A stretch of 38,580 nucleotides of DNA from an uncultured Planctomycetales bacterium (GCA_964550865.1 CAZKCX010000002.1:1-38580), one strand, 5' to 3'. Counted from the first letter of the stretch, positions 7,286 to 27,299 are shown. Numbers and translations: made by a program. Notes: generated by a model from the letters alone, not told the origin.

Positions 7286-7548
7286 GGCAGTTCACGGCCG
7301 GGGGCGGCCGTGCCACACTGTTCGATCTTTGTTGCAGGCAGCTTAGGAGAGGTCCGGGGCGGCAAGGGGAGTCTGCGATGCAGGGATCCAGACCGCGAAC
7401 GCGATGCCTCGTGCCGTGCTTCATTGCTTGCTTCTGCTGCGATGTGCTTCCGGCGGCCGAGCGGTCCGGACGACTGTGGCCGATCGGTGAGGCGCATGTT
7501 CGCGCCTGCGAGACCGTTGAGCAGGCCTAGGGGTCGCGGGGAGTTCGC

Positions 7549-8445
7549 ATGCCGAGTGGGGAAATCGAACCTGGTCTAAAGGAAGGCGTGGACCGCCTCG
7601 TCGACTGGGCCCTGACCGAGGACGGCGGCGGCGTAGACGTCACCAGTGAGCTGGTGGTGCCCGCCGCCGCACACGGAACCTATCACCTCGTGGCCCGCGA
7701 ACCGGGCGTGTTCTCCGGGCTGGCCGTGCTCGACGAATTCGCGCTACGCTTCGCGGGCGAAGGGTTGGCCGTCTCGCTCTGCGTCAGCGACGGGGAGCGC
7801 ATCGACCGCGGGCGGGTGCTTGCGACGCTCGACGGGCCGACGCGTCTACTCCTTCGCATCGAGCGGCCGATGCTGAACTTCCTCCAAAGACTGTGCGGTG
7901 TGGCGACCATGGCCCGCCGGTTTGTGGACGCCGTTTCGGGCACCGGCGCGACCGTTCTCGACACGCGAAAGACGATTCCCGGGTGGCGCGAGCTGGACAA
8001 GTACGCCGTGCGTTGCGGTGGCGGAACGAATCATCGCGCGGGCCTGCACGATGCCGTGCTGGTCAAGGACAACCACCTTGCCGCCGTACCGATCGAAGCG
8101 CTTTGCGATGTCGTGACCGAGCTCGTGGCGAAGGCTCGTACGCGACAGCCCCCGCTCGACTTCGTCGAGATCGAGGTCGATTCCCTCGACCAGCTCCAAG
8201 CCGTCCTCGCGGTTGCGGGCGTGGATCGCGTGCTGCTGGACAACTTCGCGCTCGAGGACATGCAGGAAGCGGTTCGGCTTCGCGACCGTGGGCCCCATCC
8301 CGCCATTCGGCTGGAGGCCAGCGGCGGGATCGACCTCGATACCGCTCGGGCCGTCGCGGAGACGGGCGTGGACTTCCTCTCCGTCGGCGCGCTGACGCAT
8401 TCCGTTCGATGCCTCGATTTGGCCCTCGATGCGGCCGAGACTTGA
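7549..8445 (+). CDS. nadC: nicotinate-nucleotide pyrophosphorylase (carboxylating), quinolinate phosphoribosyltransferase
   Basis: 'LDTRKTIPGWRELDKYAVRCGGGTNHRAGLHDAVLVKDNH' and 'LEASGGIDLDTARAVAETGVDFLSVGALTHS' are canonical NadC blocks. Confidence 0.95.
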   Translation: MPSGEIEPGLKEGVDRLVDWALTEDGGGVDVTSELVVPAAAHGTYHLVAREPGVFSGLAVLDEFALRFAGEGLAVSLCVSDGERIDRGRVLATLDGPTRLLLRIERPMLNFLQRLCGVATMARRFVDAVSGTGATVLDTRKTIPGWRELDKYAVRCGGGTNHRAGLHDAVLVKDNHLAAVPIEALCDVVTELVAKARTRQPPLDFVEIEVDSLDQLQAVLAVAGVDRVLLDNFALEDMQEAVRLRDRGPHPAIRLEASGGIDLDTARAVAETGVDFLSVGALTHSVRCLDLALDAAET

Positions 8446-8464
8446 GGCAGACCAAGCCAGCCTC

Positions 8465-9580
8465 TCAGGAACGAAGGGCCTCCAGGGCGGCGTCGAGCTC
8501 CGGTGCAAGGTTTGGCCAGAAGAATCGTTTGACCTTGCGCCGCGCACGGTGCGAGTCGTCTTGCCATAGGTCCCCTTGTCCAACACGCTCGGCCAATTCC
8601 ATGAGCCGCTCGGCCAACTGCTGCGGGCTCCCGTCGTAGAAGAACTCGTTTGCGTGCGGTGCTTCGTCTCTCCCGAGGATCTCCGGATACGCGAGGCGGA
8701 TGGGCAGGAGAGGATACGCGCCGGCGGCGATGGCCTCCACGACGCTGATCCCAAAGAACTCGTGCTGGGCGGTCGAGACGAGGACGTCGGATATGAATAG
8801 GGCGGCCTGATAGTCGCTGCGGCTCTCCTGGTAGCCCCATCGGTCGACGTGGTCGCGAAACATCTCCACGGCTTGATCGAATACCGGCGGAGACTGACGG
8901 AACTGTTCGCCGACGACGTTTAGCCGGAAGTCCACGCCCCGTTCGCGCAAGCGCTCGATCGCCGAGAAGAACGTGTCCGGGTCCTTGTCGTGCTCCCACC
9001 GGGCGGCCCAGAGGATCCGCAGCGGTCCCGCGGCTCGATCGCCGCGGGGCGGGAACGCGTCGACGCCGGGCGGTCGGATGGCCGACTTGGCCCGTATGCG
9101 GGCCGCCGCGTCTTCAGGCGGATGGTCGGGCATGCGAGCGAGAAACCGCGGCAGCGCATCGAGAAACTCCAAGCGATGGAACGCGGAGTTGAACCATACC
9201 TGCGTCGCCGCCAGCCCCGTCGTCATATTCGTCAGCACATAGTGGTAGTCGCGCTCATCTTCATGCTGAACCGGGTACGTGAGCTGGTTCTCGTGGAAGT
9301 ATGCCACCGAGGGCAGGAGTTGCGCCTCGCTCGGCGCAAGGCCGAGAAACTCGGCTAAGTTCAGCATGTCGGAGCAGAAGAGGAGATCCCAGGTCTCTCC
9401 GGCGTTTATGCGCCGGCGAACCTCATCGGCGAAGGTTACGGCGGCGTGCCGCATCCGCCACTTCCATTTGTAGGGCGGCAGGGGGAGGATCGTCCAGTCG
9501 TGCCGGCTTCGGGACGACCAGCCGTCGAGGAACGCGCGGTGGCTGCCACCATAGTAGGGTTCGAGGGCGAGGATTCGCAT
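8465..9580 (-). CDS. DUF3524 domain glycosyltransferase (GTDC1 / tRNA-queuosine mannosyltransferase-like)
   Basis: Start at MRILALEPYYGGSHRAFLDGW (ATG 9580). 'EPYYGGSH' and 'LPPYKWKWRMRHAA' parallel the human GTDC1 N-terminus as I recall it (EAFYGGSH, LPAKKWHWRAR). The C-terminal half is GT4-like ('HEFFGISVVEAIAAGAYPL'). The 96 upstream ORF codons were rejected. Confidence 0.75.
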   Translation of the reverse strand: MRILALEPYYGGSHRAFLDGWSSRSRHDWTILPLPPYKWKWRMRHAAVTFADEVRRRINAGETWDLLFCSDMLNLAEFLGLAPSEAQLLPSVAYFHENQLTYPVQHEDERDYHYVLTNMTTGLAATQVWFNSAFHRLEFLDALPRFLARMPDHPPEDAAARIRAKSAIRPPGVDAFPPRGDRAAGPLRILWAARWEHDKDPDTFFSAIERLRERGVDFRLNVVGEQFRQSPPVFDQAVEMFRDHVDRWGYQESRSDYQAALFISDVLVSTAQHEFFGISVVEAIAAGAYPLLPIRLAYPEILGRDEAPHANEFFYDGSPQQLAERLMELAERVGQGDLWQDDSHRARRKVKRFFWPNLAPELDAALEALRS

Positions 9581-9725: not shown

Positions 9726-11717
9726 ATGGCCGAGACGACATCTCCTGCGCTCGCCGAAGGGAAGCCCCCGTTGGCCGGTCTGACGGGTCGGATGGTCTTG
9801 CTGGGCGCGCTTTCCTTGGGCATCGGCTGGGGCATTCGCGGGAACTTCGGCCACGAATACGGTGCCATGATCGCGGGGACGCTCGCGGCGATGGCCGTCG
9901 TGCTGGTCTCCGGCCGGGAGGACTGGCATCGCCGTATCGCCTTCTTCGCGTTCTTCGGCGCCCTCGGGTGGTCGTTCGGCGGGACGATCTCCTATATGCA
10001 GGTCATCGCGTACACGCACAGCGGCCATCTGCCGTCGCAGGTCTACGGGTTTGCGAATCTGTTCGTGATCGGTTTCGTGTGGGCCGCGATGGGGGGGCTG
10101 GGAACGGCCGTGCCCGCATGCCTGGATCGCGAACGATTGACGGAGCTCGTCCCGCCGATCATCGCCGTCTTCCTCGCGTGGTTCCTGCAGGACGTCGCCA
10201 TGTGGTGGAACCTGACGGATCAAGGCGACTTCCGTCATGAGGACAGGCTGTACTGGCACGATACGGACTGGGTCGCCGCGCTGCTGGCCATCGAGGCCGT
10301 GCTGGTCTATGCCGCCGTCCGCGGGCGGTTCGGCATGGGTACGCGGCTCGTGCTGTACGCGTCGATCGGATGGTGGGCGGGTTTCCTCGGCCTGGTCGAG
10401 GTCCTCGGGCTTCGCATGACGCCGCCACGCGGCGACAACTGGGCGGCCATGGTCGGCATGACGGCGGGGCTGTTCGTGTTCTGCATTCGGTATCGATTGT
10501 GGCCCATCCTTCTAGCGGGGCTGATCGCGGGGTTCATCGGCGGCTTGGGGTTCCCCACGGCGCAGGCCATCAAGCTGCTCTGGATCAAGACCGGCCTGCA
10601 GACCAACTGGCATAGCGTACTCGAGCAGACATACGGGGCGTTCAACGGGATCGGCATCGCGGTGGCGATGGGCGTGCTCGCGTCGCGCATCGGGCTTCTC
10701 CGCGAGGCGCCCGCCTCGGTGACCGAAGAGGGCGCGTCATTGCATGATCGCGCGTCGGAGGACGAGGCCGGGTCCGCTCTCGGCGGATTCACCCGATTCA
10801 TCCTTGGCGTCCTGACGCTGATCGGAGTGCTTCTGATCATCGTCGGTGCGACGGCCGCGCTGCTGGGCCTGGCCGGGATGTGCTATCACGTGGGCCTGCA
10901 CCGTCACATCCGTGAGGGCGTCATGGGGCTCAATCCGCAGGTGGATCTGCTGCTGGGTGATCCGACGTGGAAGAAGTTCGTCTTCTGGATGAACGGTCAT
11001 TTTGCGGGGTTGTTCTTCCTGACGTTCGGACGCGTCCTCGCCCGTGTCGGCAGGCTCGCGCAGGAAGGAGACGCCGTTTCATCCGCCCGCGTCCCGGCGC
11101 GCCGGTGGACCGAGGCCTTCTGCGTCGGCTTGGTCATGATCGGGCTGACGTACGTGAACCTCGTCAAGAACGTGGAGACGTGGATCAAGCACGAGGCGAT
11201 GCCGGCCGAGATGTACGGCCTGCATGCGTACTGGTGGTTCACGATCGGTTACGTGGCCGTGCTGATCGCCTTCGTGGTCCTGGCGGTGCGACACCATCGC
11301 CGCCCGCTCGGCGTGATTCCCGATCGTTGGGTCGGCAGGGCCCAGCTTCTGTATCTCACGTTTCTGTGGGTGATGGTGATCGGCAATCTGATGCGTGCGA
11401 TCCCGCCGTTCCATCCGCAACGGCTCATCACCGAGGGCGTGATCATCATCAACGCCATCGTGTGCACGGTTCTTGTGCTGATCTTGGGGGAGACCCTCCG
11501 CTGCGGACCCGCCGCACCAGCTCGAGGCTATGGGCGGTTGCTCGGAAAGACGCTGCTGGTCGGTGTCTTCAGCTTCATCGCACTGTTGGGAGCCCAGACG
11601 GCGATTGCGCGACTGTGCTACGGCGATGAGCATGCGCCGGGAGCGGGCAAGCACATCCGGTTCGGCCCGGACGCGACGACCAGCCCCGCGCCGAAGGAGG
11701 GGCAAGCACATCCGTGA
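9726..11717 (+). CDS. polytopic integral membrane protein, unknown function
   Basis: 663 aa with more than 12 hydrophobic segments, for example 'MVLLGALSLGIGWGI', 'IAFFAFFGALGWSFGG' and 'WWFTIGYVAVLIAFVVLAV'. Coding-like composition throughout. I recognise no family. Confidence 0.7.
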   Translation: MAETTSPALAEGKPPLAGLTGRMVLLGALSLGIGWGIRGNFGHEYGAMIAGTLAAMAVVLVSGREDWHRRIAFFAFFGALGWSFGGTISYMQVIAYTHSGHLPSQVYGFANLFVIGFVWAAMGGLGTAVPACLDRERLTELVPPIIAVFLAWFLQDVAMWWNLTDQGDFRHEDRLYWHDTDWVAALLAIEAVLVYAAVRGRFGMGTRLVLYASIGWWAGFLGLVEVLGLRMTPPRGDNWAAMVGMTAGLFVFCIRYRLWPILLAGLIAGFIGGLGFPTAQAIKLLWIKTGLQTNWHSVLEQTYGAFNGIGIAVAMGVLASRIGLLREAPASVTEEGASLHDRASEDEAGSALGGFTRFILGVLTLIGVLLIIVGATAALLGLAGMCYHVGLHRHIREGVMGLNPQVDLLLGDPTWKKFVFWMNGHFAGLFFLTFGRVLARVGRLAQEGDAVSSARVPARRWTEAFCVGLVMIGLTYVNLVKNVETWIKHEAMPAEMYGLHAYWWFTIGYVAVLIAFVVLAVRHHRRPLGVIPDRWVGRAQLLYLTFLWVMVIGNLMRAIPPFHPQRLITEGVIIINAIVCTVLVLILGETLRCGPAAPARGYGRLLGKTLLVGVFSFIALLGAQTAIARLCYGDEHAPGAGKHIRFGPDATTSPAPKEGQAHP

Positions 11718-13788: not shown

Positions 13789-15513
13789 TTAGCCGATGAT
13801 GAAGCGTCGTCGCTTGATGTAGTCCCACACGACATAGCGGTCGAGGTCGCGGCCGCCGGTGAAGAATACGCGGCCTTGCGTTGCCTCGGTCATGCGGTAG
13901 GCGAATTGCACGTCCTCGCTGGTCTGCCCCCAACTCGGTAGGAGGAAGATATTCATGGTGATGCCCTGCTTGGCGCAAATTTGGGCCTCGCGCATCGTCG
14001 CCTGTTCCGTGAGCGGGTCGGGCGGATAGAGGAGGTAAAGGAACTCGTCCTCGAAGTGCGCCGTGGGCAGGCCGTCCGTGATCAGGATGATCTGTCGGTT
14101 CGGTGTGTCCTGCACGGTAAGGAACTGCCGCGCGAGCTGCAGGCCTCTCTGGATGTTCGTGAAGTGCGGCGGGATCTGGAACTCGCTCATGTTGGGGTTG
14201 CTCATGTCGGCCTTCAGGCGAACGACCGGGTCGTACACCATCACCGGCTTGGGCATGAGCTCGGGGATCTCGGAGATGTGCCGCGGCTTGGCGAAGCTGT
14301 AGATCTCGATGAATTGCACGAAGTCGCCGGGGTATTCCGTTCGGATCAGACCGTGCAAGGCCAGGGCCATCCGTTTCGCATTGACGTACTGCGAGCCGTG
14401 CCGCATCGAGCCGCTCATGTCGATCAGGACGGCCGTTGCGCATTTGGGGTTGTTCCGCGTGCGATGGATCTCGATGTCGTCGGGTTTCATGCGGACCGGC
14501 AGTGACGCGCCGTCGCGGAGCATAGCGTTGATCATCGACGCCGGGATGTCCATGTGCGTGATCGAGTCGCCGAACTCGTACGGCTTGGTCTGTTGCATCT
14601 CGATCGCGCCTTCGCCGGCAACGGGGCCCTGATGGCGCCCGGATCGCGCGGCCTCCAGCTCGCCGAAGATCTCCTCGAGCAGGCGCGATTGAAACAGGCG
14701 GAAGGCCTTCGGCGTGAGCGTGTACTCTCCGCCGGATTGCTCGAGGCCCTGCCGCTCCGCCAGCTCGCGCATGTAGTCCTGGATATACTGCTGGAGTTCG
14801 CTGAGCTTCTCCATGTCGCCGGGCTCGGCGTATTCCGCCAGCGCGTCCATGTCGATGACGGCGATCTGACCGGTCTCTTCCGCCTCCTCGAGCTGCTCGA
14901 GCAGCCTGTCGATTTCCTCGAGCTCTTCCTTGATGGCCAGGGCCTCGGGAATCGTCATCCCGGTGCGGCCGGTGAATGCGTACTTGGCGGCCAGCTCATC
15001 GACCTGATACTTCTCGCCGAGGGCATCCATGAGCTGAACGAGCTGCCGTGCGAAGAGGTCCCGCTGGTTCTTCGAGTGATACCACAGGCCTTCGAGGTCA
15101 CGGAGCTGCTCGAGACGGACGGCCTCGTGGTACCGCCGCGCGGCCTTCCGCGGCGGACGGATCTCCCTTGCCATGCCGTGGAACTGCCGCGAGGCCTCTC
15201 CCTGCACGGTATCGGTCTCGTACGTCTCCAGGATCTTCCGCTTGCGCTCGAGCAGGAGCGCGCGGAGCGCATCGATGCTCGGACCCAGTCCCGCGATCTG
15301 GCTGGGGTCGATGTCGATGGCTCGGGCCAACTCCTCCTCCGTCAGGTGACGCATGCTCCCGAAGTACATCATGTGCTCGAACGCCTGAGAGACGAGGTCC
15401 GGCTGGGGCGCGGTCGGGCTGGGAAAGCTCTTCGGATCGTACTTCTGGTACGTGTGAACCACGCCGCCGTACCGCTGGTGCTGTGGTTTCAGGGGCGTTT
15501 GATCAGAACTCAT
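13789..15513 (-). CDS. VWA domain-containing protein (partner of the upstream AAA+ ATPase)
   Basis: MIDAS motif '[10 protein letters not shown]' and a C-terminal VWA fold ('[10 protein letters not shown]'), plus a long helical N-terminal region. ATG 15513 (MSSDQT) overlaps the stop of the ATPase gene by 11 nt. Confidence 0.85.
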
Positions 15514-16921
15514 ACGTGATCCTGCCGTGATGCTCGGACCGGGAGATCTTGTCCTGGACATACAGACCCGCGAGGACGAACTCGACGCACGACGCCCGGA
15601 CGGCGGGATCGTCCGCGGGATTGACCTCGAAGGCCTTCTCCCACGCAGGGGGAACCCGCTTGAGACGCTCGGCGTAGTGGGCCGAGGACAGCATGTCGCC
15701 GACCTCCACCTTCACGCCGTGGCCGAAGATCTCGGCGATCTCGGCCAGGCCATGCTTGTCGACGTACTCGTCGAAGACCGTGTTGATGGCCTCGGCCTGG
15801 ATCGCATCGAGGACCTGTCGTTCGCTCATCTGATGGCTGCCCATCATGTCCAGCTCCAGCTTGCCCAGCGACGACGAGTGGCAGTGGCTCAGGTCGCTGA
15901 TCCGCGGGACGGCCGGGCTCTCCCCGAGGACGGCCGCCCGCTGTCTGGCGCTGGCGATCATCGTCCGGTAGTTCGCGATGCTGAACCGCGCGCTCACGCC
16001 GGATTGCTGGTCGACGTACTTCGACTTCCGCGCGGCGATGCTCATCTGCTCGATGATCTCGTTCATGAACGGCGGGACGACGACGGGCAGCTCCCCGTTC
16101 CGGCTGATCGCCGCCTCCTGCTGCATGATCTCGATGCCGAGCTCACGCGTGCGCGGATAGTGCGTCTGCACGAGCGAGCCGATGCGGTCCTTGAGTTGGG
16201 GGATCACCTTGCCGCTGCGGTTGTAGGTCGCGGGGTTCGCCGAGAAGAGGATCAATACGTCGATATCGAACCGGATCGGGTACCCGCGGATCTGGACGTC
16301 ACGCTCCTCGAGGATGTTGAACAGGCCCACCTGCACGAGCTCGTCCAGTTCCGGCAGCTCGTTCATGGCGAAGATCGCGCGGTGCATTCGGGGAATGAGA
16401 CCGAAGTGCAGGGCGTCCTCGGCGGACATGCTCGTGCCGCCCGCCAGCTTGGCCGGGTCGATCTCGCCGATGATGTCGGCGAACTTCGTGCCCGGGCTCA
16501 ATCGCTCCGCGTAGCGATCGTCGCGATGCCACCAGGCAATCGGGATCCGGTCCTCAGCCTGTTGGGCGATGAGCTCTCTTCCCTGGCGCGTGATCGGCCG
16601 ATACGGATCCTCGTGGACCGGGCAGCCTGTGATGTCGAGGTAGGGGACCTCTTCGTCGAGGAATTCAGCCAGCAGCCGCATCAGGCGGCTCTTGGCCTGC
16701 CCCTTCTCGCCGAGGAAGAGCATGTCGTGCTGGGCGAGAATGGCGATGTTGATCTCCGGAATCACCGTGTCGTCGTAGCCGATGATCCCGGGGAACAGCC
16801 CATCCCGGTTGCGAAGCCTTCGCAAGAAGTTGTCGTGAATCTCCTTCTTGACGGGCTTGGAAACCCACCCGCTATCCCGCAATTCCTTCAGCGTGCTTGG
16901 CTTCGTACCGCTTTGAGGCAT
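15503..16921 (-). CDS. AAA+ ATPase, ChlI/MoxR-like (Mg-chelatase subunit I-like)
   Basis: Walker A 'GEKGQAKS'. '[47 protein letters not shown]' aligns by eye with the ChlI/BchI Walker B to sensor region. Start is uncertain. ATG 16921 (MPQSGT) has GGAGGG 10 nt upstream, and alternatives are 16945 and 17011. ATG 17011 overlaps a perfect TATAAT on the minus strand (17010-17015), which argues against 17011. Confidence 0.8.
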
Positions 16922-17220
16922 GCTCGCTTGCCCTCCAGACGCCATATGGCTATCGTCGGAAGCCTTCTGCGCTTCCTGATGACGAGCTTTCACCGTTGTC
17001 CGACTATTCATTATAGGACACGCAGGCCCGCCGAGTTCGGTGACTTCGGCAAACGGTCGCAGGCAGGACCACCCCGTCCCTGTACTTGGATGCCTGAGCA
17101 AGGCCGCGCGTCCTTGACTTTCCAGCCTGGGCGTCCCATAAGCCAAGCCTTGGGAAGGTCTTGGCAACGTCTAAGCCCACAGCCGCGGGCGCGAAGCCCG
17201 AGAAGCTCGGAGACAACACG

Positions 17221-18525
17221 ATGAGGCAAGCATTCCGCCTGCTCCCGGCAATCTGTCTTGCGCCTCTGATGGGTTTGGCCTCACCCGAGGTGTCAGAGGC
17301 CGAGAAGATCCCGACATATCGTCAGGTCGAGGCGCAGATGTTCCGCGAGCGTCGGGGCATACGCAACACGATCGACAAGCTCGCGAAGGGCGGAGAGGTC
17401 CGCGTCGCCTATCTCGGCGGGAGCATCACCGCGCAGAACGGATGGCGGGTCAAGATGACCGACTGGTTCGGCCGGACCTTCAAGAGGCCGAGGATCCGCG
17501 AGATCAATGCCGCCATCGGGGGAACGGGAAGCGGGCTCGGCGTGTTTCGCCTCGACCACGATGTTTTGCGTCACAAGCCCGACCTGCTCTTCGTCGAGTT
17601 CGCCGTCAACGACGGCGGCGCATCGCCGGAAGACATCTGGCGCGGTATGGAGGGGATTGTCCGCAAGACCTGGCGGCACGATCCGATGACGGACATCGTC
17701 TTCGTGTACACTTTCCGCGTCGGCTACGAGAAAGACCTCGACAAGGGGCTCTGCCCCCGATCCATGTCCGCCATGGAGTTGCTGGCCGACCACTACGAGA
17801 TCCCGACGATCAACATGGCGCAGCACGTCGCCGAGCTCGCACGAAAGGGCAAGCTCCAATTCGACACGCGAGACGGAAAGAAGCCGCCGAGCGACGCGAG
17901 CGTGATCCTCTTCTCCAACGACGGCGTGCATCCGCTTGACGCGGGCCATGAACTCTACAAGCAGGTCATCACGGGCGCGATCATTCGGATGACCGAGTGC
18001 AAGCTGCCGCGCGGTCCACATGAGCTTGGCGCGCCATTCATCGCCGACAACTGGGAGCGAGCGAGGTGGGTGCCGCTCCAACCGTCCATGCTTAGCAACG
18101 GCTGGAAGCGCATGGACCGGTCGAAGGGTTTGGCCAAGCGTTTCGGCCGACGCATGCCGGAGCTCTGGGAGGCCGGCAAGCCGGGCGAGACGATCGCCTT
18201 CAAGTTCAAGGGCACCATGGCGAAGCTCTACGACCTGCTCGGCCCGGACGGCGGGCAGGTGATGATCACCGTCGACGGGAAGGCCCGCGGACCCGTGCCG
18301 AGGTTCGACCGCTATTGCACGTATCACCGCATCGCGACGCTGGGCCTCGCACGAGGCCTCGAAGACAAGGTACACACGGTGAAGGTCGAGATTCATCCCG
18401 AACAGCCCGACCGAAGCTCCGTATTGAATCGGGTGAAAGGGCAGAAGGGATTTGACCCGGCAAAGTACGATGGTACGAAGCTCCGTGTGGCCGGCGTCAT
18501 GGTCGTCGGCGAGGTGGTGGAATAG
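17221..18525 (+). CDS. SGNH/GDSL hydrolase family protein, secreted
   Basis: Signal '[27 protein letters not shown]'. SGNH blocks '[14 protein letters not shown]' (Ser), '[10 protein letters not shown]' (Asn) and '[12 protein letters not shown]' (Asp/His). GGAGA lies 7 nt before the ATG. Confidence 0.85.
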
Positions 18526-18604
18526 CACCAGGTCGGCTAGACTCACGGGTTACCGGAGTGGCATCCAACAGACCTCAACGGTGAAGAATCAGGAGAATCA
18601 GGCC

Positions 18605-19249
18605 ATGAGCAGAACGCTGATCTGCGTGTTGTGCGGTATGGGATTGATGCTCGCCGGGTGCAACGACTCGAGCTCCTCGACGACGACGGACAGTGAGGAC
18701 GCCGCCAAGCCCGAGCCCCGGGCCGCCAAGCCCTCCGCCGAAGTCGAGAAGGATCCCAAGCCTGTTGTCGTCATGGAGACCACCAAAGGCACGATCACGA
18801 TCGAGCTGGATCGGACGAAGGCCCCCGTGACCGTGGCCAACTTCCTGCAGTATGTGGATGACGGCTTCTACGCCGGGACGATCTTCCATCGCGTCATGCC
18901 GGAGTTCATGATCCAGGGCGGAGGCTTCACGCCCGGCATGAATCGCAAGCCCACGCGTCGTCCGATCAAGAACGAGGCCAAGAACGGCCTGAAGAACAAG
19001 CGCGGCACGATCGCGATGGCGCGGACGGGGGATCCGCATTCGGCCACCGCGCAGTTCTTCATCAACGTCGTGGACAACGCCGCCCTTGACTACCCCTCGC
19101 GGGACGGTTGGGGCTACTGCGTGTTCGGCAAGGTCGTCGACGGCATGGACGTGGTGGACAAGATCAAGTCCGTCGAGACGGGAACGGAGGGGCAGTATAA
19201 GAATGTTCCGAAAGAGGACGTCATCATCAAGAGCGTCAAGCGCAAGTGA
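18605..19249 (+). CDS. peptidylprolyl isomerase, cyclophilin type, lipoprotein
   Basis: AGGAG lies upstream of ATG 18605. Lipobox 'LMLAGC' is followed by a Ser/Thr/Asp linker. Cyclophilin blocks '[14 protein letters not shown]' and '[21 protein letters not shown]'. Confidence 0.9.
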
Positions 19250-19311
19250 GCCAATCCAGCGGCGCGATCGGGCAAGGCGTGCCGTGCAGCCGAGCAAGAA
19301 GGGAGTCGAAG

Positions 19312-19815
19312 ATGGCAGACGGAAACCCGACCGTGGTCATGGATACGTCGATGGGCAAGATCACCGTCGAACTGGACGAGGTCAAGGCCCCCGAAACGGT
19401 CAAGAACTTCCTGGCCTATGTGGATGAGGGGTTCTACGACGGAACCATCTTTCACCGCGTCATCCCGAACTTCATGATTCAGGGCGGAGGCATGGAGCCG
19501 GGCTTGCAGCAGAAGCCCACGCAGTCTCCCGTCAAGAACGAGGCCAACAACGGCCTGAAGAACCGCAAGGGCACGATCGCGATGGCTCGCACCGCGGATC
19601 CGCACTCGGCGACCGCGCAATTCTTCATCAACGTCCGGGACAACGACTTCCTCGACTATCCCGGCCAGGATGGCTGGGGCTATTGCGTCTTCGGTGAGGT
19701 CGTCGAGGGTCTGGACGTGGTCGAGAAGATCAAGGACGTGCCCACAACTACCAAACGCCCGTTCGAAGACGTACCGGTGGACGACGTCGTCATTCAGTCG
19801 GTGCGGAGGCAGTAG
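19312..19815 (+). CDS. peptidylprolyl isomerase, cyclophilin type, cytoplasmic
   Basis: '[14 protein letters not shown]' and '[21 protein letters not shown]', with no signal peptide. Start at MADGNP (ATG 19312). Confidence 0.9.
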
Positions 19816-21853
19816 GCTTTGCGCTGGTTCGGGTCGTTCCTCCCCCGAGGAGCTCGCCCAGGGTGCGAGTTCTTTCCGCGAAGAGAGCGTTCGTCGGGGC
19901 GGACTCGGTGAGACGCTTGTAGAGACGTCGCGCCCGCTCGAGGGCGTGGCGGTTCCGGCATGCCTGGCCGAAATGAAGGAGCTTCTCCGCCACGAGAACG
20001 GGTCGCGTGCCCGTCGATTCCGCCTCCAGTCGCCCAACCGCCTCGTCGGCCAGATCGCAACGGTTCACCGAGACGAACAGGTCCACGAGCCGGCCCAGCC
20101 ACTCGGGGTCGCTCTCCCCGCTTGTGAGCATCTGCCGACCCGCCCAGATCGCCTCACCATCCCGACCTCGTTCGAGGTAGTAGGGCAAGAGCAGTCGCAT
20201 CGGATGGCAGTGATCCAGGAGCAGCGTGGTATTGCTGCGACGACCGTCGCGTTCGTACTCCGCCAGCCGAGCGCGGAGGTCATGCTCGAAGTGCTCCAGG
20301 GCGCGATCGAATCGCGCCTGATCCTCGGAAAGCAGACAGGCGACCGCATAGGCGAATCGAAGGTACGGTTGATGCGCTTCGCGATAGCCGAAGAGGTCCA
20401 GATTGCTCAGCGGAGCGAGCAAGGCCAGGGCCAAGAGCGCGACGCCCAACCTGCGGGGGTTCGTTCGGTTCGCCGCGAGTCGAAGGATCTCCACCACGGC
20501 ATAGGCGGCGAAGAGGACCAGCAGATGGACCATCGGGAGGCGGAAACGCGTGTTGACGATGAAGAGAATGGCGGGCAACGCCAGCGACGCGACCATCGCG
20601 GCGAGGTAGATCACACCGGTACCCCGCGGCTTGCGCGTCAGGGCCAGGCCGATTCCCACCAATCCCAGCGGGGCGACGATGCCGTAGTGAAAGTACGATA
20701 AGGCCGTCAGCACCTCGCTGAAACGGAGGAAGTGGTAGAGGTCCTTGTTGCTCGGGTATTCGTAGGCGTTGAAGAGCCAGCAGAGCCGTCGCAGGGCATG
20801 TCGCGCGAACCAGCCCGGGTGTTCACGAAGGTACGCGAAGCCCTCTCGGGCGAGCAGCGCGCTGAACTCACCTCGTGTCGGCTCGCGGCCCAGCTTTGCC
20901 TCCGTGTAGCGGTAGGCGTTCGCGAAGTTCAGACAGCACCGGGCCCACGGTTCGTTCGTATCGAGCGTCGATTCCTCGAGGAAGACCGATTCGTCCACGA
21001 GCAGCGGCCCGTCCTTGCTGTCCGAATGCGGGTTGTTGGCCACGTGGACATTAAGCCCGCCGTAGGCGCCGAGAAGGACCCACTCGCCGCCGACGATGCG
21101 GTTTCGGAGGGTCACGGGCAGCACGGCGGCGCAGCATCCGACGGTCAGCAGACCCGCGGCGAGGACGCCTCGCCCGAACGTTCCACCGCGGGCGGAAGAC
21201 ATCCCCTTCGTTTCGTCGGACGCGGCGCGGTGTGTCTGTCGTCCTCGACGCCACGGGTGGACAAAGACGATCAACGCCAACAGCGGCGCGTACGCCAGGA
21301 TATTGGGCCGCGTGATCGCGCCCAGTCCCAGCACGGCTCCGCAGCACAGCCACTTCCAACGGCTGCGATCGTCCCACGCCACCAAGAGGTAGGCCAAGAG
21401 CATATAGAACAGACAGGCGAGGGCGGTATCGAGCAACTCGGCGCTGAAGAACACGAACGTCCAGAAGACGGCCGTCCAGAGGCCCGCGATGAGTCCGACG
21501 ATCCACCCGAACAGATGCCGCGCCGTCAGGCCGGCCAGCATCGGCGTCAGGGAGACCAGGATCGTCTGCACAAGGCGGGCGCGGTTCGAATCCTCCCCGA
21601 ACACCGCATAGACACCGGCCAGGAAGTACGTATACAGCGGCGCCTTGTAGTAGCTCGCCTCGGGCACACGGTCGTGAAGGATCGCCAGGGCGAACTCGTG
21701 ATTGCCGCGCTCGTCGAGCGTCGGGTGCTGATAGAGCGGGTCGTCGTGGACCTCATGGAAGACGGCCAGTCGAATGGCAACCGCAACGCCGAAGAGAACA
21801 ATGGCGAGAATCAGCGTCCGGCCGACAGAGCCGTTCAAGCTAGCATTGGCCAT
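19790..21853 (-). CDS. GT-C fold glycosyltransferase (GT39/PMT-ArnT-like) with C-terminal TPR-like helical repeats, copy 1
   Basis: Multi-TM N-terminal domain with the first-loop acidic motif '[12 protein letters not shown]', plus '[18 protein letters not shown]' and '[17 protein letters not shown]'. The C-terminal ~230 aa are a soluble helical repeat. ATG 21853 overlaps the stop of the upstream rSAM gene by 14 nt. Confidence 0.8.
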
Positions 21854-23273
21854 CACGGTGGAAGAGCCCTTTGGTGATGCGATGTGCGTAGATGGGCAAG
21901 TAATAAGGCAGCCGCAGCGGCTGCGGGTAGTCGCGCGCAATACGGTAGATGCGCGCGGGATTCAAGAAGAACTGGCGGTTGGCCTTTCGCTGATACGCGA
22001 ACAGCACCTCGTCCGGGACCTCGGACAGGTTGACGTTGATGAGGGCGAAGTCCGTGTCGTCGTAGTTCACGTGAGCCAACTTCTCGGGGTGCAGGCGCTG
22101 GACCTCTTCATACAATCTCGTGTTGGGGAAGGGCATGACGGTGAAGAACGAGGCCGTATGCAGCTTGGAATTGCAGGCCACGTCCAGCGTCATCTGCAGG
22201 TCTTCCTCGGTCTCCGTCGGAAAGCCCAGCATCGCGAAGCCGTTGGCGAAGACGCCGCGCCGGACGGCCATCTCGACGCCTTCGAGGAACCTCGGGATGT
22301 TCAGGCGCTTGCCGGTGTACTGCTGTACCCGCGGTGAGCCGGCCTCCAAGGCGAAGCTGGAGAAATACAGGCCCGTATCCACCAACGCGTCGACGACCTC
22401 TTGCGTGAGGATGTCCGTTCGCACCGCGTTCGGAAAAGCGATCTTGAACTTCAGGCCGCGGCGCTGCGCGGTCTCGGCGAACTCGATCACACGCTGCTTG
22501 TCCAGATTGAAGATGTCGTCCACGAACTCCACGTCGTCGATGCCGTAGGCCTTCTGGTAGTGCTCGATCTCGTCCACAATGCGCTCGGCGGAGTGCGCGC
22601 GAAAACGCTTGCCGAAGATCTTGTGGCACCACATGCAGTGGTAGGGGCAGCCGCGGCTGCTCGTCAGCGAGATGTACTTTCGCCGCACGATCGGGGGCAT
22701 GGACTGGAGCTTCCAGTAGCGGGAAACGTCGATCAGGTCATAGGCGGGAAAGGGCAGGGAGTCCAGATCCTCGATGAGGGGGATTTGCCCTTGATTGCGT
22801 ACGATGTCGCCGTCGGGGGTTCGCCAGATGAGCCCGGGAATCTCGGCGAAGTCTCCCCCCTCATATCGTGCCCGGAGGATCGCCTCGAATGCCCGCTCAC
22901 CCTCGCCCACCACGGCAGCGTCGGCCACCGTATCCTCGAGCACCCGCTCCTGGAATGAGGAGGTATGGGGCCCGCCGACCAGGATCAGGGCTTCCGGCAA
23001 GGCCCGGCGGATCTTCTCGGACATCGGCCCGACGGTGTGGGCGCACGTCGTGATGGCGCCGAACCCGACGATGTCGGCCCCGAAGTCGATGGCCTCTTGG
23101 ACGATTTCGTCCTCGGTCTGGTCCTCGGCCCGCTGGTTGATGAGCCGGACGTCCAGGTCGAACCGCTCACGGAGGTAGCCGGCCAGGTAGAGGATGCCCA
23201 TCGGCGGTGTCGTAAACGGATAGGTCACCGTACGGTGCCCGACGTTGACCAGAAACAGTTTCAACCGCCTCAT
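21840..23273 (-). CDS. B12-binding-domain radical SAM protein (class B-like), copy 1
   Basis: N-terminal B12-binding-like block 'TTPPMGILYLAGYLR...ILVGGPHTS'. Radical SAM cluster motif 'SSRGCPYHCMWC' (CxxxCxxC). No SPASM-type Cys clusters. ATG 23273 (MRRLKL) is preferred over GTG 23282. Confidence 0.85.
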   Translation of the reverse strand: MRRLKLFLVNVGHRTVTYPFTTPPMGILYLAGYLRERFDLDVRLINQRAEDQTEDEIVQEAIDFGADIVGFGAITTCAHTVGPMSEKIRRALPEALILVGGPHTSSFQERVLEDTVADAAVVGEGERAFEAILRARYEGGDFAEIPGLIWRTPDGDIVRNQGQIPLIEDLDSLPFPAYDLIDVSRYWKLQSMPPIVRRKYISLTSSRGCPYHCMWCHKIFGKRFRAHSAERIVDEIEHYQKAYGIDDVEFVDDIFNLDKQRVIEFAETAQRRGLKFKIAFPNAVRTDILTQEVVDALVDTGLYFSSFALEAGSPRVQQYTGKRLNIPRFLEGVEMAVRRGVFANGFAMLGFPTETEEDLQMTLDVACNSKLHTASFFTVMPFPNTRLYEEVQRLHPEKLAHVNYDDTDFALINVNLSEVPDEVLFAYQRKANRQFFLNPARIYRIARDYPQPLRLPYYLPIYAHRITKGLFHRDGQC

Positions 23274-23412
23274 GGAAGGCACCTAAGGCAGCATTGCCCG
23301 TCGACAGATGAGCAACGTTCAGCAGATGCGGTTAAGGCTCGCCCCCAGGCACGAGTCGCCCAAACGCAAGAAAACGTGCATAATCCGATGGTAGTTTTGG
23401 GCCCGTCCAGAG

Positions 23413-25407
23413 TCAAGATTGCCCCTTTCGTGCTGCAGCGCGATCGGACGGGCTCGTGGTGGAGAACCGCTCCGCCGCGAGCAAGCTGCGAATCTCCTCC
23501 AGCCGTTCATGATACTTCAATTCCGCGGGATACCTTGCCACCAGCTGCTTGAAGCACCGCCGGGCCTCGAGGAGCGCCTGGCGATCCTCGTACTCCCTGG
23601 CAAACTCCAGGAGGGCCTCGGCCACGAAGCTCGGATCCGCCGGCAACGCTCCCTGATTCAACAAGGCAAGGAGGTTTCGGGCCGCCGTCCGACTGTCGGC
23701 CTTCATCAGCGTGCGGAAGGCTCGAGGGGCGGCATGGGCGTCGAGGCGTCGCGTCTCGATGAGCCTCTGCGCGTAGTGGACGGCCTTGGAGAGAGGCCCG
23801 TTCCGATCGAAGTAGTCGTACAGACAGAAGAGCGCGTGGCCGTGCCTGCCCCCACCCTCGACCTGCATCGCCATGGAGGTTTCGATGCGCTCGATCATCT
23901 CCGCCATCTCTTCCCCTCGTCCCGTCGCGCCGCACGCCGCCGCGTAGATGAACATGAGATACGGGTGGCAATGCGGTCGGTAGCCGAAGAGATTGGCGTT
24001 GCTGAAGACGGCGGCTCCGGACAGAAACGCGGCGGCGAAGAAGGCCTTGCGACGTTGGACGCGCGGTCGACACCACTGCACGGTCCGCACGAGCCCGTAC
24101 GCTCCCAGGGGCGCGAGCATGCACACGATCGCCACACGAAACCGCGCGTTCACCAGAAAGAACATGCCCGGCACGATGAGCCCAAGGAGCGTTACCCAGT
24201 AGTAGACCAGGTGATTGGACCGGACCGCTCCGGCGACGGCCAGGGCGAACCCCAAGAGGATGAAGGGACACAGAACGCCGTAGTGAAACCAGCTCAGCCC
24301 GGCCAGCAGCGAGGAGAACTCGCGGAACTGGTACAGGTCCTTGTTGTCGGCGAACTCATAGGCGTTGAAGAACCAGCACAGGCGCTTCAGCGAATCGGTG
24401 ATGAACTTGTCCGGGTGGTTGCGGATGTACCGGGCGCCGAGCCGGAACATCTCCTCGTTCATCTCCCCTCGCGTGCAGGGGCGCCCCAGCTTCTGGCTCG
24501 TGAAGTCGCATCCGCTGCGATACGTGAAGCAATGGACGTTGTACGGATCGTTCGCGTCGAACACGCCCGACGGCTCGTAGTTCGGTAGGCCGAAGAGCTC
24601 GACGTTCTTGGCGTCCGCCTCGACGTTGTTGGCCAGATAGAAGTTCACTCCACCGTACGCGCCGATGAGCACCCACTCTCCGCCCACGACGCGGTTCCGA
24701 ATCGTCACGGGCAAGACGACGAGACAGCAGCCGAGCGCCAGTCCCAGAACGCGCTTCGCCGCCGGCAGCACCCACACTCGCCGCAAGCCGCGGAGATCTC
24801 GCCAGGTCGTCCCCACGACGGTGATCGCCAGCAGGGGCGCTACAGCCAGGATGTTGGGCCTCGTGATCGCGCCGAGCCCCATGGCGATGCCGCAGAGGAG
24901 CCATTTCCACCGATGGTCATCCGGCACGCGGACGAGCAGCACGACGGTCAGCAGGTAGAACGCGCCTCCGATGGCCACGTCCAGCAGCTCTACGCTGAAG
25001 AAGACGAAGGTCCAGAACAGCGTCCCGAGCAGCCCCGCCACAACGTCGGTCGGGCGCCCGAAAAGGGCCTGGGCGATCAGAAACGTGAGCGGCGCCCAGA
25101 GCGCCGCGACGAACACCTGGAGGAGACGCGCGATGTCCGGCTCGCGACCGAAGGCGTGGTAGACGCCCATCAGGTACCACAGGTACAGGGGCGCCTTGAG
25201 ATAGGCCTTGGGTGGGGCCGTGCCCTCAAGATGGGCCACCGCGACATGGTGGTTGGTCTTCTCGTCGAGCGTCAGCCATTCGTAGAGGGGATTGTCGCCG
25301 ACTTGCCACAGGTAGACCAGGCGGACGGACAGCGCGAGAACGTAGATCGCCAGAAACCACAGAAGCGTTCGGCGTCGTGACGAAGCGTTGCTAGCACTGC
25401 TTGTCAC
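23413..25407 (-). CDS. GT-C fold glycosyltransferase (GT39/PMT-ArnT-like) with C-terminal TPR-like helical repeats, copy 2
   Basis: Paralogue of 19790-21853, sharing 'WLTLDEKTNHH', 'LKAPLYLWYLMGVYHAFG', '[17 protein letters not shown]' and 'NRVVGGEWVLIGAYGG'. GTG start at 25407 overlaps the stop of the upstream rSAM gene by 17 nt. Confidence 0.8.
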   Translation of the reverse strand: MTSSASNASSRRRTLLWFLAIYVLALSVRLVYLWQVGDNPLYEWLTLDEKTNHHVAVAHLEGTAPPKAYLKAPLYLWYLMGVYHAFGREPDIARLLQVFVAALWAPLTFLIAQALFGRPTDVVAGLLGTLFWTFVFFSVELLDVAIGGAFYLLTVVLLVRVPDDHRWKWLLCGIAMGLGAITRPNILAVAPLLAITVVGTTWRDLRGLRRVWVLPAAKRVLGLALGCCLVVLPVTIRNRVVGGEWVLIGAYGGVNFYLANNVEADAKNVELFGLPNYEPSGVFDANDPYNVHCFTYRSGCDFTSQKLGRPCTRGEMNEEMFRLGARYIRNHPDKFITDSLKRLCWFFNAYEFADNKDLYQFREFSSLLAGLSWFHYGVLCPFILLGFALAVAGAVRSNHLVYYWVTLLGLIVPGMFFLVNARFRVAIVCMLAPLGAYGLVRTVQWCRPRVQRRKAFFAAAFLSGAAVFSNANLFGYRPHCHPYLMFIYAAACGATGRGEEMAEMIERIETSMAMQVEGGGRHGHALFCLYDYFDRNGPLSKAVHYAQRLIETRRLDAHAAPRAFRTLMKADSRTAARNLLALLNQGALPADPSFVAEALLEFAREYEDRQALLEARRCFKQLVARYPAELKYHERLEEIRSLLAAERFSTTSPSDRAAARKGQS

Positions 25408-27049
25408 GTTTCAGGAACCCCTTGGTCGCGCGCTCCAGGAAGATGGGCAGATAGTACGGAAGCAACAGCGGCTGCGGGTAGTCGCGAACGATGCGGAGCA
25501 TGCGCGACGCCCTCAGGAAGAACTCGCGGTTCGCCTTCCGCTGGAAGCTGAACAGGACGTCGTCGGGCTCGTCGGAGAGGTTCACGCGAATCGTCGCGAA
25601 GTTCGTGTCGCTGTACTGAATCGGCTTGAGCCGTTCGGGCGTGCGTTCCTTGACGAGCTGGTACAGCCGCGTATTCGGAAACGGGGTGACGGTGAAGAAC
25701 GAGGCCGTGTGCAGTCGGGAGTTGACCATCGTGTCGATGGTCATCTGCATCTCCTTCTCGGTCTCGGTCGGGAAGCCGAGCATGGCGAATCCGTTCGTGA
25801 ACACGCCCTTCTTCTCCATCATCTCGACGCCGTTCAGGAACTTCGGGATGTTGAGCCGTTTGCCGGTGAACTCCTGAAGCCGCGGGGAACCGGTCTCCAG
25901 GGCGAAGCTGCACCAGAAGAGATCCATGCTGGCCAGCGCATCGACCACGTCTTCGGTGAGGATGTCCGTCCGAACGGCGTTCGGCAGGGCAATCTTCACG
26001 CGCAGGTTCTTCTTGTGGACCAAATCGGCGACGTCCACGACGCGCTTCCGATCCATGTTGAAGATGTCATCGAGGAACTCGACGTCGTTGATGCGGTACT
26101 TCTTCGTGAAGTACTCCATCTCGTCGACGATGCGCTCGGCCGAGTGGGCCCGAAAACGCTTGCCGAAAATCTTGTGGCACCACATGCACTGGTACGGACA
26201 ACCGCGGCTGCTCACCAGCGAGATGTATTTGCGCCGGGCCACGGGCGGCATGGACTGGAGCCGCCAGTACGCCGGGACGCTCAGCAGATCGTAGGCGGGC
26301 ATGGGCAGCGAATCGAGGTCTTCGATCATCGGCATCTGACCGGAATTGCGGATGATCGTGCCGTCCTGGTCGCGCCACATCAAACCAGGGATCGTGCTGA
26401 AGTCGCCGTTGTCGTCGAGATACGCGTTGAGGATCGCTTCGAAGGCCAACTCGCCCTCGCCCATGACGGCGGCATCCGCATCCGCCTGCTCGAAGACCTT
26501 CTCCTCGAACGCGGAGGTGTGGGGCCCGCCCAACAGGATGAGTGCGTTGGGCCTCCCCTGGCGAATGGTCCGAGTGAGCTCGCTGATCTGATGTGCGGCC
26601 GGGGTCATCACGGTGAAGCCGACGACATCCGGCTCGAACTTGATGGCTTCTTGGGCCAATTCCTGGGTGGTGTAGTTCTCGACCTTCTGGTTGATCAGTT
26701 TGATCTTCAGGTCGAACTTCGTCCGCAGGTACGCCGCCAAGTAGAGAATGCCCATCGGCGGCGTGGTGAGGGGATACGTCGTGCTTCTTCGCGCGACGTT
26801 CGCGAGAAAGAGCCGCAGCGGTCGCGTGGCCCTGGCCGGTCGCTTGGGTTGTGTCTTGCTCATTCTCGCCGCGCTCGCCGGGCTTTCGTCCGAAGACGAT
26901 TTGTCAGTGGTCTCACTGGGAGTCAGCGCGTTCGTGCCGCCATGCGTACCCGAATGAATCAAGCGAGTCCTCGCCTCAGCGAAAACCCGATCGACGTCCG
27001 CATCGACCGATCGCACGGCCCGTCTTCCCGCCTTGGAGTCATCGGTCAT
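25391..27049 (-). CDS. B12-binding-domain radical SAM protein (class B-like), copy 2, with N-terminal extension
   Basis: Paralogue of 21840-23273, with 'TTPPMGILYLAAYLR' and 'SSRGCPYQCMWCHKIFGKRFRAHSAERIVDE' nearly identical to copy 1. ATG 27049 (MTDDSK) has GGAGAGGAGGG 6 nt upstream. Alternative internal start at 26863. Confidence 0.85.
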   Translation of the reverse strand: MTDDSKAGRRAVRSVDADVDRVFAEARTRLIHSGTHGGTNALTPSETTDKSSSDESPASAARMSKTQPKRPARATRPLRLFLANVARRSTTYPLTTPPMGILYLAAYLRTKFDLKIKLINQKVENYTTQELAQEAIKFEPDVVGFTVMTPAAHQISELTRTIRQGRPNALILLGGPHTSAFEEKVFEQADADAAVMGEGELAFEAILNAYLDDNGDFSTIPGLMWRDQDGTIIRNSGQMPMIEDLDSLPMPAYDLLSVPAYWRLQSMPPVARRKYISLVSSRGCPYQCMWCHKIFGKRFRAHSAERIVDEMEYFTKKYRINDVEFLDDIFNMDRKRVVDVADLVHKKNLRVKIALPNAVRTDILTEDVVDALASMDLFWCSFALETGSPRLQEFTGKRLNIPKFLNGVEMMEKKGVFTNGFAMLGFPTETEKEMQMTIDTMVNSRLHTASFFTVTPFPNTRLYQLVKERTPERLKPIQYSDTNFATIRVNLSDEPDDVLFSFQRKANREFFLRASRMLRIVRDYPQPLLLPYYLPIFLERATKGFLKRDKQC

Positions 27050-27270
27050 CTGATTCCCTCCTCTCCGACCACCGACGATTTGAGGGGCCGGTCCGTTGAC
27101 TTCGCGGGCCAAGTCCACGCCGGTGTACACACCGTGCGATGCGCCGATACCACCGCCCTATACGAAGTTCATGCTCTGCCATTCGGTTGCGGTGGGTGTT
27201 TCCGGTGGGTTCCTTCCCCGCGCACCGGCGCAACTCCAGTCGGCTCCGCCCAGGAGATGTGGCACATATG

Positions 27271-27299
27271 ACTCTATGCCTAACACCCGTCTCTGTCAA
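27271..27299 (-). promoter_or_regulatory. near-consensus sigma70-type promoter for the rSAM/GT-C array
   Basis: On the minus strand: TTGACA (27299-27294), a 17-nt spacer, then TAGAGT (27276-27271). It lies in a locally AT-richer patch about 220 nt upstream of ATG 27049. Confidence 0.55.

Follow-up and report, generated by a model that had tools for sequence, protein, structure and literature searches.

The window analysed here, a stretch of 38,580 nucleotides (nt) from an uncultured Planctomycetales bacterium (GCA_964550865.1, CAZKCX010000002.1:1-38580) that is apparently a complete contig, contains between positions 19790 and 27299 four consecutive minus-strand open reading frames (ORFs), in which genes for B12-binding-domain radical S-adenosylmethionine (SAM) proteins (rSAM) alternate with genes for GT-C-fold membrane glycosyltransferases. 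The order is rSAM-A (25391-27049; 552 amino acids (aa) as called), GT-A (23413-25407; 664 aa), rSAM-B (21840-23273; 477 aa) and GT-B (19790-21853; 687 aa). Both glycosyltransferases combine a PMT_2 domain with a C-terminal domain, which is of the helical-repeat type in GT-A and resembles tetratricopeptide repeats (TPR) in GT-B. These ORFs coincide with the four genes on which an earlier note on this DNA had built its proposal of a tandemly duplicated two-gene module. Here, we found that the rSAM proteins belong to a family whose members stand beside GT-C genes in several phyla, an association that, as judged from the sequences, points to an undescribed step in cell-envelope glycan building.

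Within each pair, the end of the rSAM gene overlaps the start of its partner gene, by 17 nt between rSAM-A and GT-A (25391-25407) and by 14 nt between rSAM-B and GT-B (21840-21853), and the two pairs are separated by a minus-strand spacer of 139 nt (23274-23412) in which a consensus scan finds a weak promoter-like site (23416-23388). Upstream of rSAM-A, the scan marks the promoter-like site TTGACA-17-TAGAGT (27271-27299, minus strand), which agrees with the consensus at 10 of 12 positions. Both of its hexamers are kept in the homologous intergenic regions of two relatives, the loci L081 (4545-4650) and L082 (9870-9975), and the site is followed by a leader of ~60 nt (about 27170-27270) that is conserved in all three genomes. 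A hairpin predicted in this leader shows some compensatory changes among these three sequences, and an Rfam search upstream of rSAM-A left the leader unmatched and found no B12 or SAM riboswitch. Since the neighbours on both flanks are encoded on the other strand (DUF1841, a GFO/IDH/MocA oxidoreductase, a phosphodiesterase and GH113 on one flank; two cyclophilins, a GDSL lipase at 17161-18525 and AAA/VWA proteins on the other), the four genes look like one self-contained minus-strand transcription unit, the last gene of which, GT-B, overlaps a convergent cyclophilin gene by 26 nt at its 3' end.

Where rSAM-A begins is uncertain. The reading frame stays open as far as 27130, alternative starts lie at 27130 and at an ATG at 26863, and the first ~75 aa as called (26825-27049) are unmatched in rSAM-B and in the orthologues of 477 aa that L081 and L082 encode. 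The ATG at 26863 may be the true start; some homologues (P0028, P0031) likewise carry extensions.

The radical SAM family and its glycosyltransferase partners

rSAM-A and rSAM-B share 65% of their residues over 477 aa (E = 0) and contain the motifs TTPPMGILYLA, SSRGCPY[HQ]CMWCHKIFGKRFRAHSAERIVDE, NGFAMLGFPTETE and DYPQPL.LPYYLPI. Both match the Pfam models PF02310 (B12-binding; 82 and 78 bits) and PF04055 (Radical_SAM; 64 and 68 bits) above the gathering score, and both carry a CxxxCxxC triad, formed in rSAM-B by C209, C213 and C216. Besides this triad, the proteins hold only two to three scattered cysteines and therefore lack an auxiliary cluster of the SPASM or twitch type; Pfam model PF13186 is likewise unmatched on both. 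No transmembrane (TM) segment is predicted. An AlphaFold2 (AF2) model of rSAM-B with a predicted local distance difference test (pLDDT) score of 92.5 comprises a Rossmann domain, a partial TIM barrel and C-terminal helices, and its best Foldseek matches are MgmA, OxsB, TsrM, AprD4, CysS and TokK at 15-21% identity, with the protein glutamine methylase MgmA at the top. At the sequence level, the best match in the Protein Data Bank (PDB) is AprD4 (E = 1.8e-23). Motifs, Pfam matches and fold all agree with what had been read from the sequence before, i.e. shared rSAM blocks, a B12-binding-like N-terminus and a class-B appearance rather than that of a maturase of ribosomally synthesized and post-translationally modified peptides (RiPPs). 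The architecture of both proteins is that of class-B radical SAM enzymes without auxiliary cysteine clusters, in which cobalamin would be the presumptive cofactor. A membrane-anchoring amphipathic helix at the rSAM C-terminus was considered but gained no support, the hydrophobic moments being unremarkable.

Do the two proteins belong to a family with a known function? We compared them with the class-B NCBIfam models for ApyD, the Sden_1168 P-methylase, BchE, HpnJ, HpnR, KedN5, MgmA/MJ_0865, BzaD, PhpK, AprD4 and the ladderane rSAM. No equivalog was reached, and identity with a characterised one was rejected because every score lies far under the curated cut-off. The top score, 165-172 bits against a cut-off of 750, belongs to the RiPP enzyme ApyD; HpnJ aligned with rSAM-B over nearly the full length at 138 bits (cut-off 577.6), BchE reached 131 bits (cut-off 481) and AprD4 84-90 bits (cut-off 500).

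A word-indexed search returned 3,878 rSAM relatives at E <= 1e-20, of which the top 120 all show an identity of 55% or more. The organism-named members among the best relatives come from Phycisphaerae, Hydrogenedentes and Spirochaetes, the nearest being metagenome-assembled genomes of Phycisphaerae (Planctomycetota), and among species-representative genomes further members turned up in Nitrospirales, Desulfosudaceae, Desulfobacterales and Ignavibacteriae, with 47-61% identity. In an exhaustive HMMER search over 1.84 billion 50%-identity representatives, the family appeared as four full-length clusters with 593-433 bits, followed after a clear gap by the next class-B rSAMs, a large cloud of about 37% identity at no more than 347 bits. 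Because of this gap, the family, as delimited by these searches, is a discrete and strongly conserved orthologous group, unnamed and uncharacterised, within which identity across phyla amounts to 55-60%. Four giant proteins of 3,500-7,500 aa (P0253, P0263, P0267 and P0290), each with four class-B rSAM-matching stretches at 31-34% identity, appear to be multi-rSAM megaproteins.

The partner proteins GT-A and GT-B share 37% identity along their entire length (683 aa, E = 2e-141), and with 32.5 and 54.8 bits both exceed the cut-off of 26.1 bits of PF13231 (PMT_2). The acidic LDE motif noticed earlier in the first loop is present as TLDE, together with the further conserved block that had been quoted, and D47 of the TLDE loop of GT-B is invariant in an alignment of 46 sequences, outgroup PMT_2+TPR proteins among them. 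The AF2 model of GT-B (pLDDT 92.2, predicted TM-score (pTM) 0.90) matches STT3, AglB, PglB, Pmt4, ArnT, ALG9/12, DPY19 and AftA with a Foldseek probability of 1.00. At the C-terminus, the model forms nine paired helices (residues 496-670), and the last ~190 residues match TPR proteins including P58IPK and designed CTPR proteins, so that the C-terminal helical repeat described before is real. At E <= 0.01, neither GT-A nor GT-B is matched by the Pfam models for TPR, PF02366 (PMT) or MIR; DUF1736 (PF08409) is unmatched on both, as is the ArnT equivalog of NCBIfam. Of the Pfam matches that the earlier note had expected, PF02310, PF04055 and PF13231 were found above gathering, and those to PF02366 and TPR were not. 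The label 'GT39-like' can be kept in the loose sense of the PMT_2/GT-C clan only: GT39 proper, the PMT protein O-mannosyltransferases, differs from the window proteins in its PF02366 profile and luminal MIR domains. The automatic NCBI name of close homologues is 'glycosyltransferase family 39 protein'.

Hydropathy and the positive-inside rule predict for GT-B 11 TM helices with the N-terminus inside and the C-terminus outside, a topology equal to that established for TMTC proteins (PMC7801869). In this model, the catalytic loop with the TLDE motif and the TPR-like C-terminal domain most likely face the periplasm. TMTC1-4 and other proteins that join PMT_2/GT-C and TPR domains share with the window proteins a polytopic GT-C domain of about 11 TM helices, an acidic motif in the first loop and C-terminal helical repeats on the non-cytoplasmic side (PMC7801869; predicted for the window proteins). 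The GT-Cs of the window differ from them by the absence of DUF1736, by repeats that the Pfam TPR models do not recognise and by their membership in a narrow subfamily. This subfamily consists of about 69 clusters at 90% identity and ends in a gap from 1e-85 to 1e-48, beyond which the canonical PMT_2+TPR proteins follow at 1e-48 or worse.

Gene pairing in Phycisphaerae and in other lineages

We compared the window with about 25 loci of relatives (numbered with L), a small and opportunistic sample in which genes were called by a simple ORF heuristic. Within Phycisphaerae, L082/L083 show the identical four-gene layout with 17-nt overlaps and a spacer of 141 nt, and L081 has the order rSAM-GT-rSAM-rSAM-GT-rSAM. 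Stop/start overlaps as in the window are also seen in L082/L083 and, of the two L081 pairs, in one, and at least 12 further contigs hold both a family rSAM and a subfamily GT-C. In neighbour-joining (NJ) trees, which were calculated without support values, the paired rSAMs fall into a single clade that splits into the orthologous groups A and B; across genomes, identity is about 80% inside each group, and between the groups it is 65%. rSAM-A is ~80% identical to the first rSAM of L081 and L082, and rSAM-B 81-83% identical to the B-type rSAM of the same loci. In all three genomes, an A-type rSAM is always accompanied by a GT-A-type partner and a B-type rSAM by a GT-B-type partner. From the identities within and between the groups it follows that the duplication is older than these lineages and that both copies were kept. 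It is quite conceivable, if somewhat short of probable, that the two pairs represent old paralogous versions which would differ in donor and/or acceptor specificity.

A simple duplication of the pair as one block was rejected as a full explanation. GT-A clusters with the first GT-C of L081 and L082; GT-B clusters in the NJ tree with members of unpaired GT-C arrays, to which it is 47-49% identical, and not with GT-A, to which it is only 37% identical. The notion of a tandemly duplicated module is too plain, for the rSAMs are sister paralogues but GT-A and GT-B are not.

Is the association restricted to Phycisphaerae? Searches with tblastn and a hidden Markov model of the subfamily found no GT-C of the window's own kind beside rSAM orthologues of other phyla, and our first view from this search, that the adjacency is not conserved, was overturned by the finding of different GT-C/TPR families upstream of the orthologues. 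Indeed, a GT-C-like gene is the immediate upstream neighbour of the rSAM gene in about 8 of about 20 non-Phycisphaerae loci, from Hydrogenedentota, Desulfosudaceae and several metagenome contigs. By a rough estimate, GT-C genes as a whole make up well below 1% of a genome. The rSAM orthologues in these loci are 45-61% identical and lie on the same strand as the GT-C/TPR gene, often with 4-nt overlaps, and the gene order is reversed with respect to the window, with the GT-C upstream and the rSAM downstream.

The upstream partners are varied. In L002, L003 and L094, an 11-TM protein gives a weak PMT match (17.8-22.1 bits, cut-off 22.7) and matches the LA_3751/2 putative glycosyltransferase family at 49.9 bits, far short of the 200 bits that this family requires; the partner in L093 is a PMT_2 protein (29.8 bits), and L092, L095 and L098 have a protein with a membrane domain and TPR. 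In L126 (Hydrogenedentes), the upstream gene encodes a PMT_2+TPR protein with a relationship to the GT-Cs of the window (E = 1e-27), and the order is GT-C, rSAM, GDSL hydrolase, second GT-C paralogue. One to two genes after the rSAM, L003 and L094 carry a GT2 that resembles AglJ, ArnC, a Dol-P-hexose transferase or PpgS. The series in L098 consists of an NTP_transferase-GT2, two GT-C/TPR genes, rSAM, GT2 and a further rSAM, which are co-directional and partly overlapping, and in the spirochaete locus L124 giant GT4/GT1 genes adjoin the rSAM. Because partner families and gene order differ, the rSAM/GT-C neighbourhood is, as far as these loci can be compared, a recurrent association and not inherited synteny.

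The earlier note had named two grounds on which its proposal should be abandoned, namely membership of the rSAMs in a characterised orthologous group and an adjacency peculiar to this genome. The rSAMs fall outside any such group, with NCBIfam scores below the cut-offs and nearest PDB entries of 15-21% identity, and the adjacency extends to other genomes, with the same layout in Phycisphaerae and an analogous layout with other GT-C/TPR proteins elsewhere. Therefore, both grounds fall away.

Hydrolases of the SGNH/GDSL type also recur near family rSAMs. They are TPR-fused in L004 (6931-9033) and L007 (3739-6096) and stand alone within the L126 operon (7434-8534), which may point to esterase or acyl-transfer chemistry within this envelope pathway.

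A possible sugar-tailoring step and its alternatives

What could connect a radical enzyme with a membrane glycosyltransferase? Because its reaction depends on SAM and a reductant and no TM segment is predicted, the rSAM must work in the cytoplasm. GT-C catalysis is periplasmic, so that the simplest link between the two is a shared lipid-linked intermediate. We tentatively propose, with a confidence that stays somewhat below even, that the radical enzyme tailors a polyprenyl-phosphate-linked sugar in the cytoplasm and that the cognate GT-C transfers this sugar in the periplasm. In such a pathway, a housekeeping GT2 encoded elsewhere would load the sugar onto polyprenyl phosphate at the cytoplasmic membrane face, and the rSAM would modify the lipid-linked sugar via a 5'-deoxyadenosyl radical, whether cobalamin takes part or not; the reaction might be a C-methylation, a deoxygenation/dehydration of the AprD4 kind or an epimerisation. 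After flipping, the translationally coupled GT-C would pass the modified sugar on to a protein or glycan of the envelope, an acceptor that would be recognised by its TPR-like domain. We infer substrate, reaction type, cobalamin use and acceptor alike, and genomic context favours the role in making or modifying a polyprenyl-linked donor or an envelope glycoconjugate that had been suggested before. The identity of 55-60% across phyla would be easier to reconcile with a universal substrate, either a small molecule or lipid-linked, than with a variable peptide.

The logic of such a system has known analogues. In ArnC-ArnD-ArnT, an undecaprenyl-phosphate sugar is tailored before its transfer by a GT-C. 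More generally, in ArnC-ArnD-ArnE/F-ArnT and Gtr-type systems a GT2 makes a polyprenyl-phosphate monosaccharide, which is tailored in the cytoplasm and transferred by a periplasmic GT-C, and ArnC-like GT2 genes accompany rSAM and GT-C in L003 and L094. The differences are that a radical SAM protein would take the place of the deformylase as tailoring enzyme, and that the window contains no GT2 or flippase. AprD4, the radical SAM 1,2-diol dehydratase of apramycin biosynthesis (PDB 6FD2), shares the B12-like Rossmann domain and the radical SAM barrel, has the best TM-score to the rSAM-B model (0.71/0.74) and acts on a sugar. However, it is only about 21% identical, its substrate is a soluble aminoglycoside intermediate, and it belongs to an antibiotic cluster with no GT-C beside it.

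Radical chemistry on a sugar attached to a membrane lipid has its likeness in HpnJ (hopanoid cyclitol-ether) and Cds (calditol synthase), rSAMs proposed to act on lipid-linked sugar head groups (PMC13459092). Yet HpnJ works with a GT2 (HpnI) and not with a GT-C, its model scores far below the cut-off as given above, and a ring contraction would destroy the glycosyl-donor function; hopanoid genes were not found in the window. The three-domain architecture is shared with MgmA, TsrM, TokK, CysS and OxsB (Foldseek E about 4e-22 to 1e-18, TMq 0.65-0.72), which differ by an identity of 15-19% and by their substrates (protein Gln, Trp, carbapenem and polyketide intermediates, nucleoside), and none of which is tied to a membrane glycosyltransferase. 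A full-text literature search found no published pairing of a radical SAM enzyme with a GT-C, GT39 or PMT_2 protein, and a 2026 review of lipid-modifying radical SAM enzymes contains no comparable pairing, in keeping with the earlier statement that no such characterised pathway is known. Both components come from known superfamilies; their pairing is undescribed in the literature found.

Several observations weigh against the proposed tailoring of a lipid-linked sugar. rSAM orthologues of 50-60% identity stand alone or in unrelated context in L001, L004, L005, L007, L084/85, L096, L097, L099 and L100, L125 holds two family rSAMs and a SPASM rSAM without a GT-C, and altogether about half of the non-Phycisphaerae orthologues have no adjacent glycosylation gene. 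The GT-C subfamily of the window, in turn, also occurs in large tandem arrays free of rSAM, with five genes in L123 (1624-12121; same genome as L081), seven in L087 (1-14235) and four to five in L086 (2008-22268), here beside three YfhO-type GT-C genes and a sulfatase, and as a solo copy adjoining Wzy_C in L122. The pairing is neither obligate nor 1:1. The solo rSAMs and the rSAM-free arrays, together with the four rSAMs and two GT-Cs of L081, contradict the obligate 1:1 coupling claimed at the outset, and a simple duplicated module is left unsupported also by the grouping of GT-B. Furthermore, no GT2 polyprenyl-phosphate-sugar synthase or flippase is detectable in the 38.6-kb window, and enzymes that modify peptides or proteins (ApyD, RiPP C-methyltransferases, MgmA) score like those that modify sugars or lipids. 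Sequence and fold show a class-B architecture but leave cobalamin a putative cofactor, and AprD4, the nearest sequence relative with a structure, is not known to contain bound cobalamin.

The arrays themselves, with 5-7 PMT_2 GT-C paralogues and position-wise orthology between genomes, are a large unexplored GT-C expansion in Phycisphaerae.

As an alternative, the rSAM could act on the acceptor, i.e. a peptide or protein would be methylated, epimerised or cross-linked in the cytoplasm, exported and then glycosylated by a GT-C that binds it through the TPR domain. The peptide enzyme ApyD as top NCBIfam match, the matches to RiPP C-methyltransferase models and the protein methylase MgmA as best Foldseek match all speak for this idea, as do the preference of TPR domains for proteins, the SPASM-type rSAM genes that adjoin family members in L095 and L125, the 51-aa ORF in L125 and the function of TMTC enzymes as protein O-mannosyltransferases (PMC7801869). 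We nevertheless regard it as unlikely: all peptide-enzyme matches lie far under the family cut-offs, the spacers of the window, L081 and L082 contain no conserved small ORF, the SPASM neighbours are not orthologous to each other, and an identity of 55-60% across phyla would be unusual for enzymes that track fast-evolving peptides. A reading of the locus as a RiPP cluster gained no support, with neither an auxiliary cluster nor a conserved precursor ORF seen, and a SPASM rSAM as conserved second partner was rejected, the SPASM neighbours of L095, L125 and L098 being only distantly related to one another. In L125 (431-4610), two family rSAMs are separated by the 51-aa ORF (MGIEHIPLGCEAF...) and flanked by the SPASM-type radical SAM gene; this could be a peptide-related context for the family, or the ORF could be spurious.

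A second alternative takes the rSAM for a modifier of membrane lipids, which would methylate, cyclise or couple (C-C) acyl or isoprenoid chains or the polyprenyl carrier. Matches of similar strength to HpnJ, HpnR, BchE and the ladderane-associated B12 rSAM agree with this, many class-B rSAMs act on lipids (PMC13459092), and the solo occurrence in many apparently anaerobic lineages fits a general lipid function. But it is GT-C, TPR and GT2 genes that recur beside family members, and not genes of lipid synthesis, and no equivalog cut-off is approached, which makes a lipid substrate improbable. The role that would be left to the GT-C, glycosylation of the modified lipid or mere co-regulation in envelope remodelling, seems to us improbable as well.

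The stable A-A and B-B pairing across genomes, its translational coupling and the top structural match to MgmA could also be explained if the rSAM were a dedicated maturase that modifies a cytoplasmic loop of its partner GT-C, as MgmA and Mmp10 do on methyl-coenzyme M reductase. This is quite unlikely in view of orthologues at about 58% identity without an adjacent GT-C, of partners elsewhere that come from different GT-C families with different loops, and of array GT-Cs of the same subfamily that have no rSAM partner. It is no less doubtful that the adjacency is a lineage-specific accident of gene order in Phycisphaerae between unrelated processes: the two families do occur independently of each other and the window GT-C subfamily was not found beside orthologues in other phyla, but the overlapping stop/start codons are conserved, and in several further lineages the rSAM adjoins GT-C/TPR proteins of three or more distinct families, with the gene order reversed.

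The products that GT-C enzymes assemble or decorate include lipid A, O-antigens, arabinogalactan, teichoic acids and glycoproteins, and in the current view conventional enzymes of the cytoplasm tailor the donors for them. If the rSAM indeed tailored a lipid-linked sugar for its GT-C, a radical SAM step in GT-C operons would be new chemistry for envelope glycan biosynthesis, and a function would be gained for a class-B radical SAM family that is tight and unnamed but occurs widely. We further speculate, as a possible but rather doubtful extension, that these units belong to an unrecognised, widespread GT-C branch in which a dedicated cobalamin-type rSAM performs C-H chemistry on the polyprenyl-phosphate-linked sugar prior to transfer. 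Radical-tailored sugars would then be expected on the envelope glycans or glycoproteins of Phycisphaerae, Hydrogenedentota, Desulfobacterota and other lineages that are apparently mostly anaerobic, and the two pairs of the window would be two specificities of that glycosylation branch. The rSAM/GT-C units would also offer a handle on the unexplored GT-C repertoires of Planctomycetota, with at least 7 paralogues per genome, and since the minimal unit consists of two genes only, the hypothesis is directly testable.

Neighbouring genes and minor features

On the GT-B side of the four-gene unit, two cyclophilin-type peptidyl-prolyl isomerase genes lie in tandem (18452-19815) with a mutual overlap of 4 nt; the second converges on GT-B, and the arrangement is syntenic in L081. 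A functional tie of the rSAM/GT-C pairs to the adjacent GDSL lipase was rejected, this gene being unrelated to the GDSL gene of the L126 operon and absent near L082. Further along, a MoxR-like AAA gene and a VWA-domain gene (13789-17167, minus strand) are probably unrelated to the rSAM/GT-C pairs; the AAA/Mg-chelatase-like gene is syntenic in L081. In L126, a match to the Acido-Lenti-1 small RNA (10837-10882; 45.4 bits, gathering score 37) lies just past the GT-C/rSAM/GDSL/GT-C operon.

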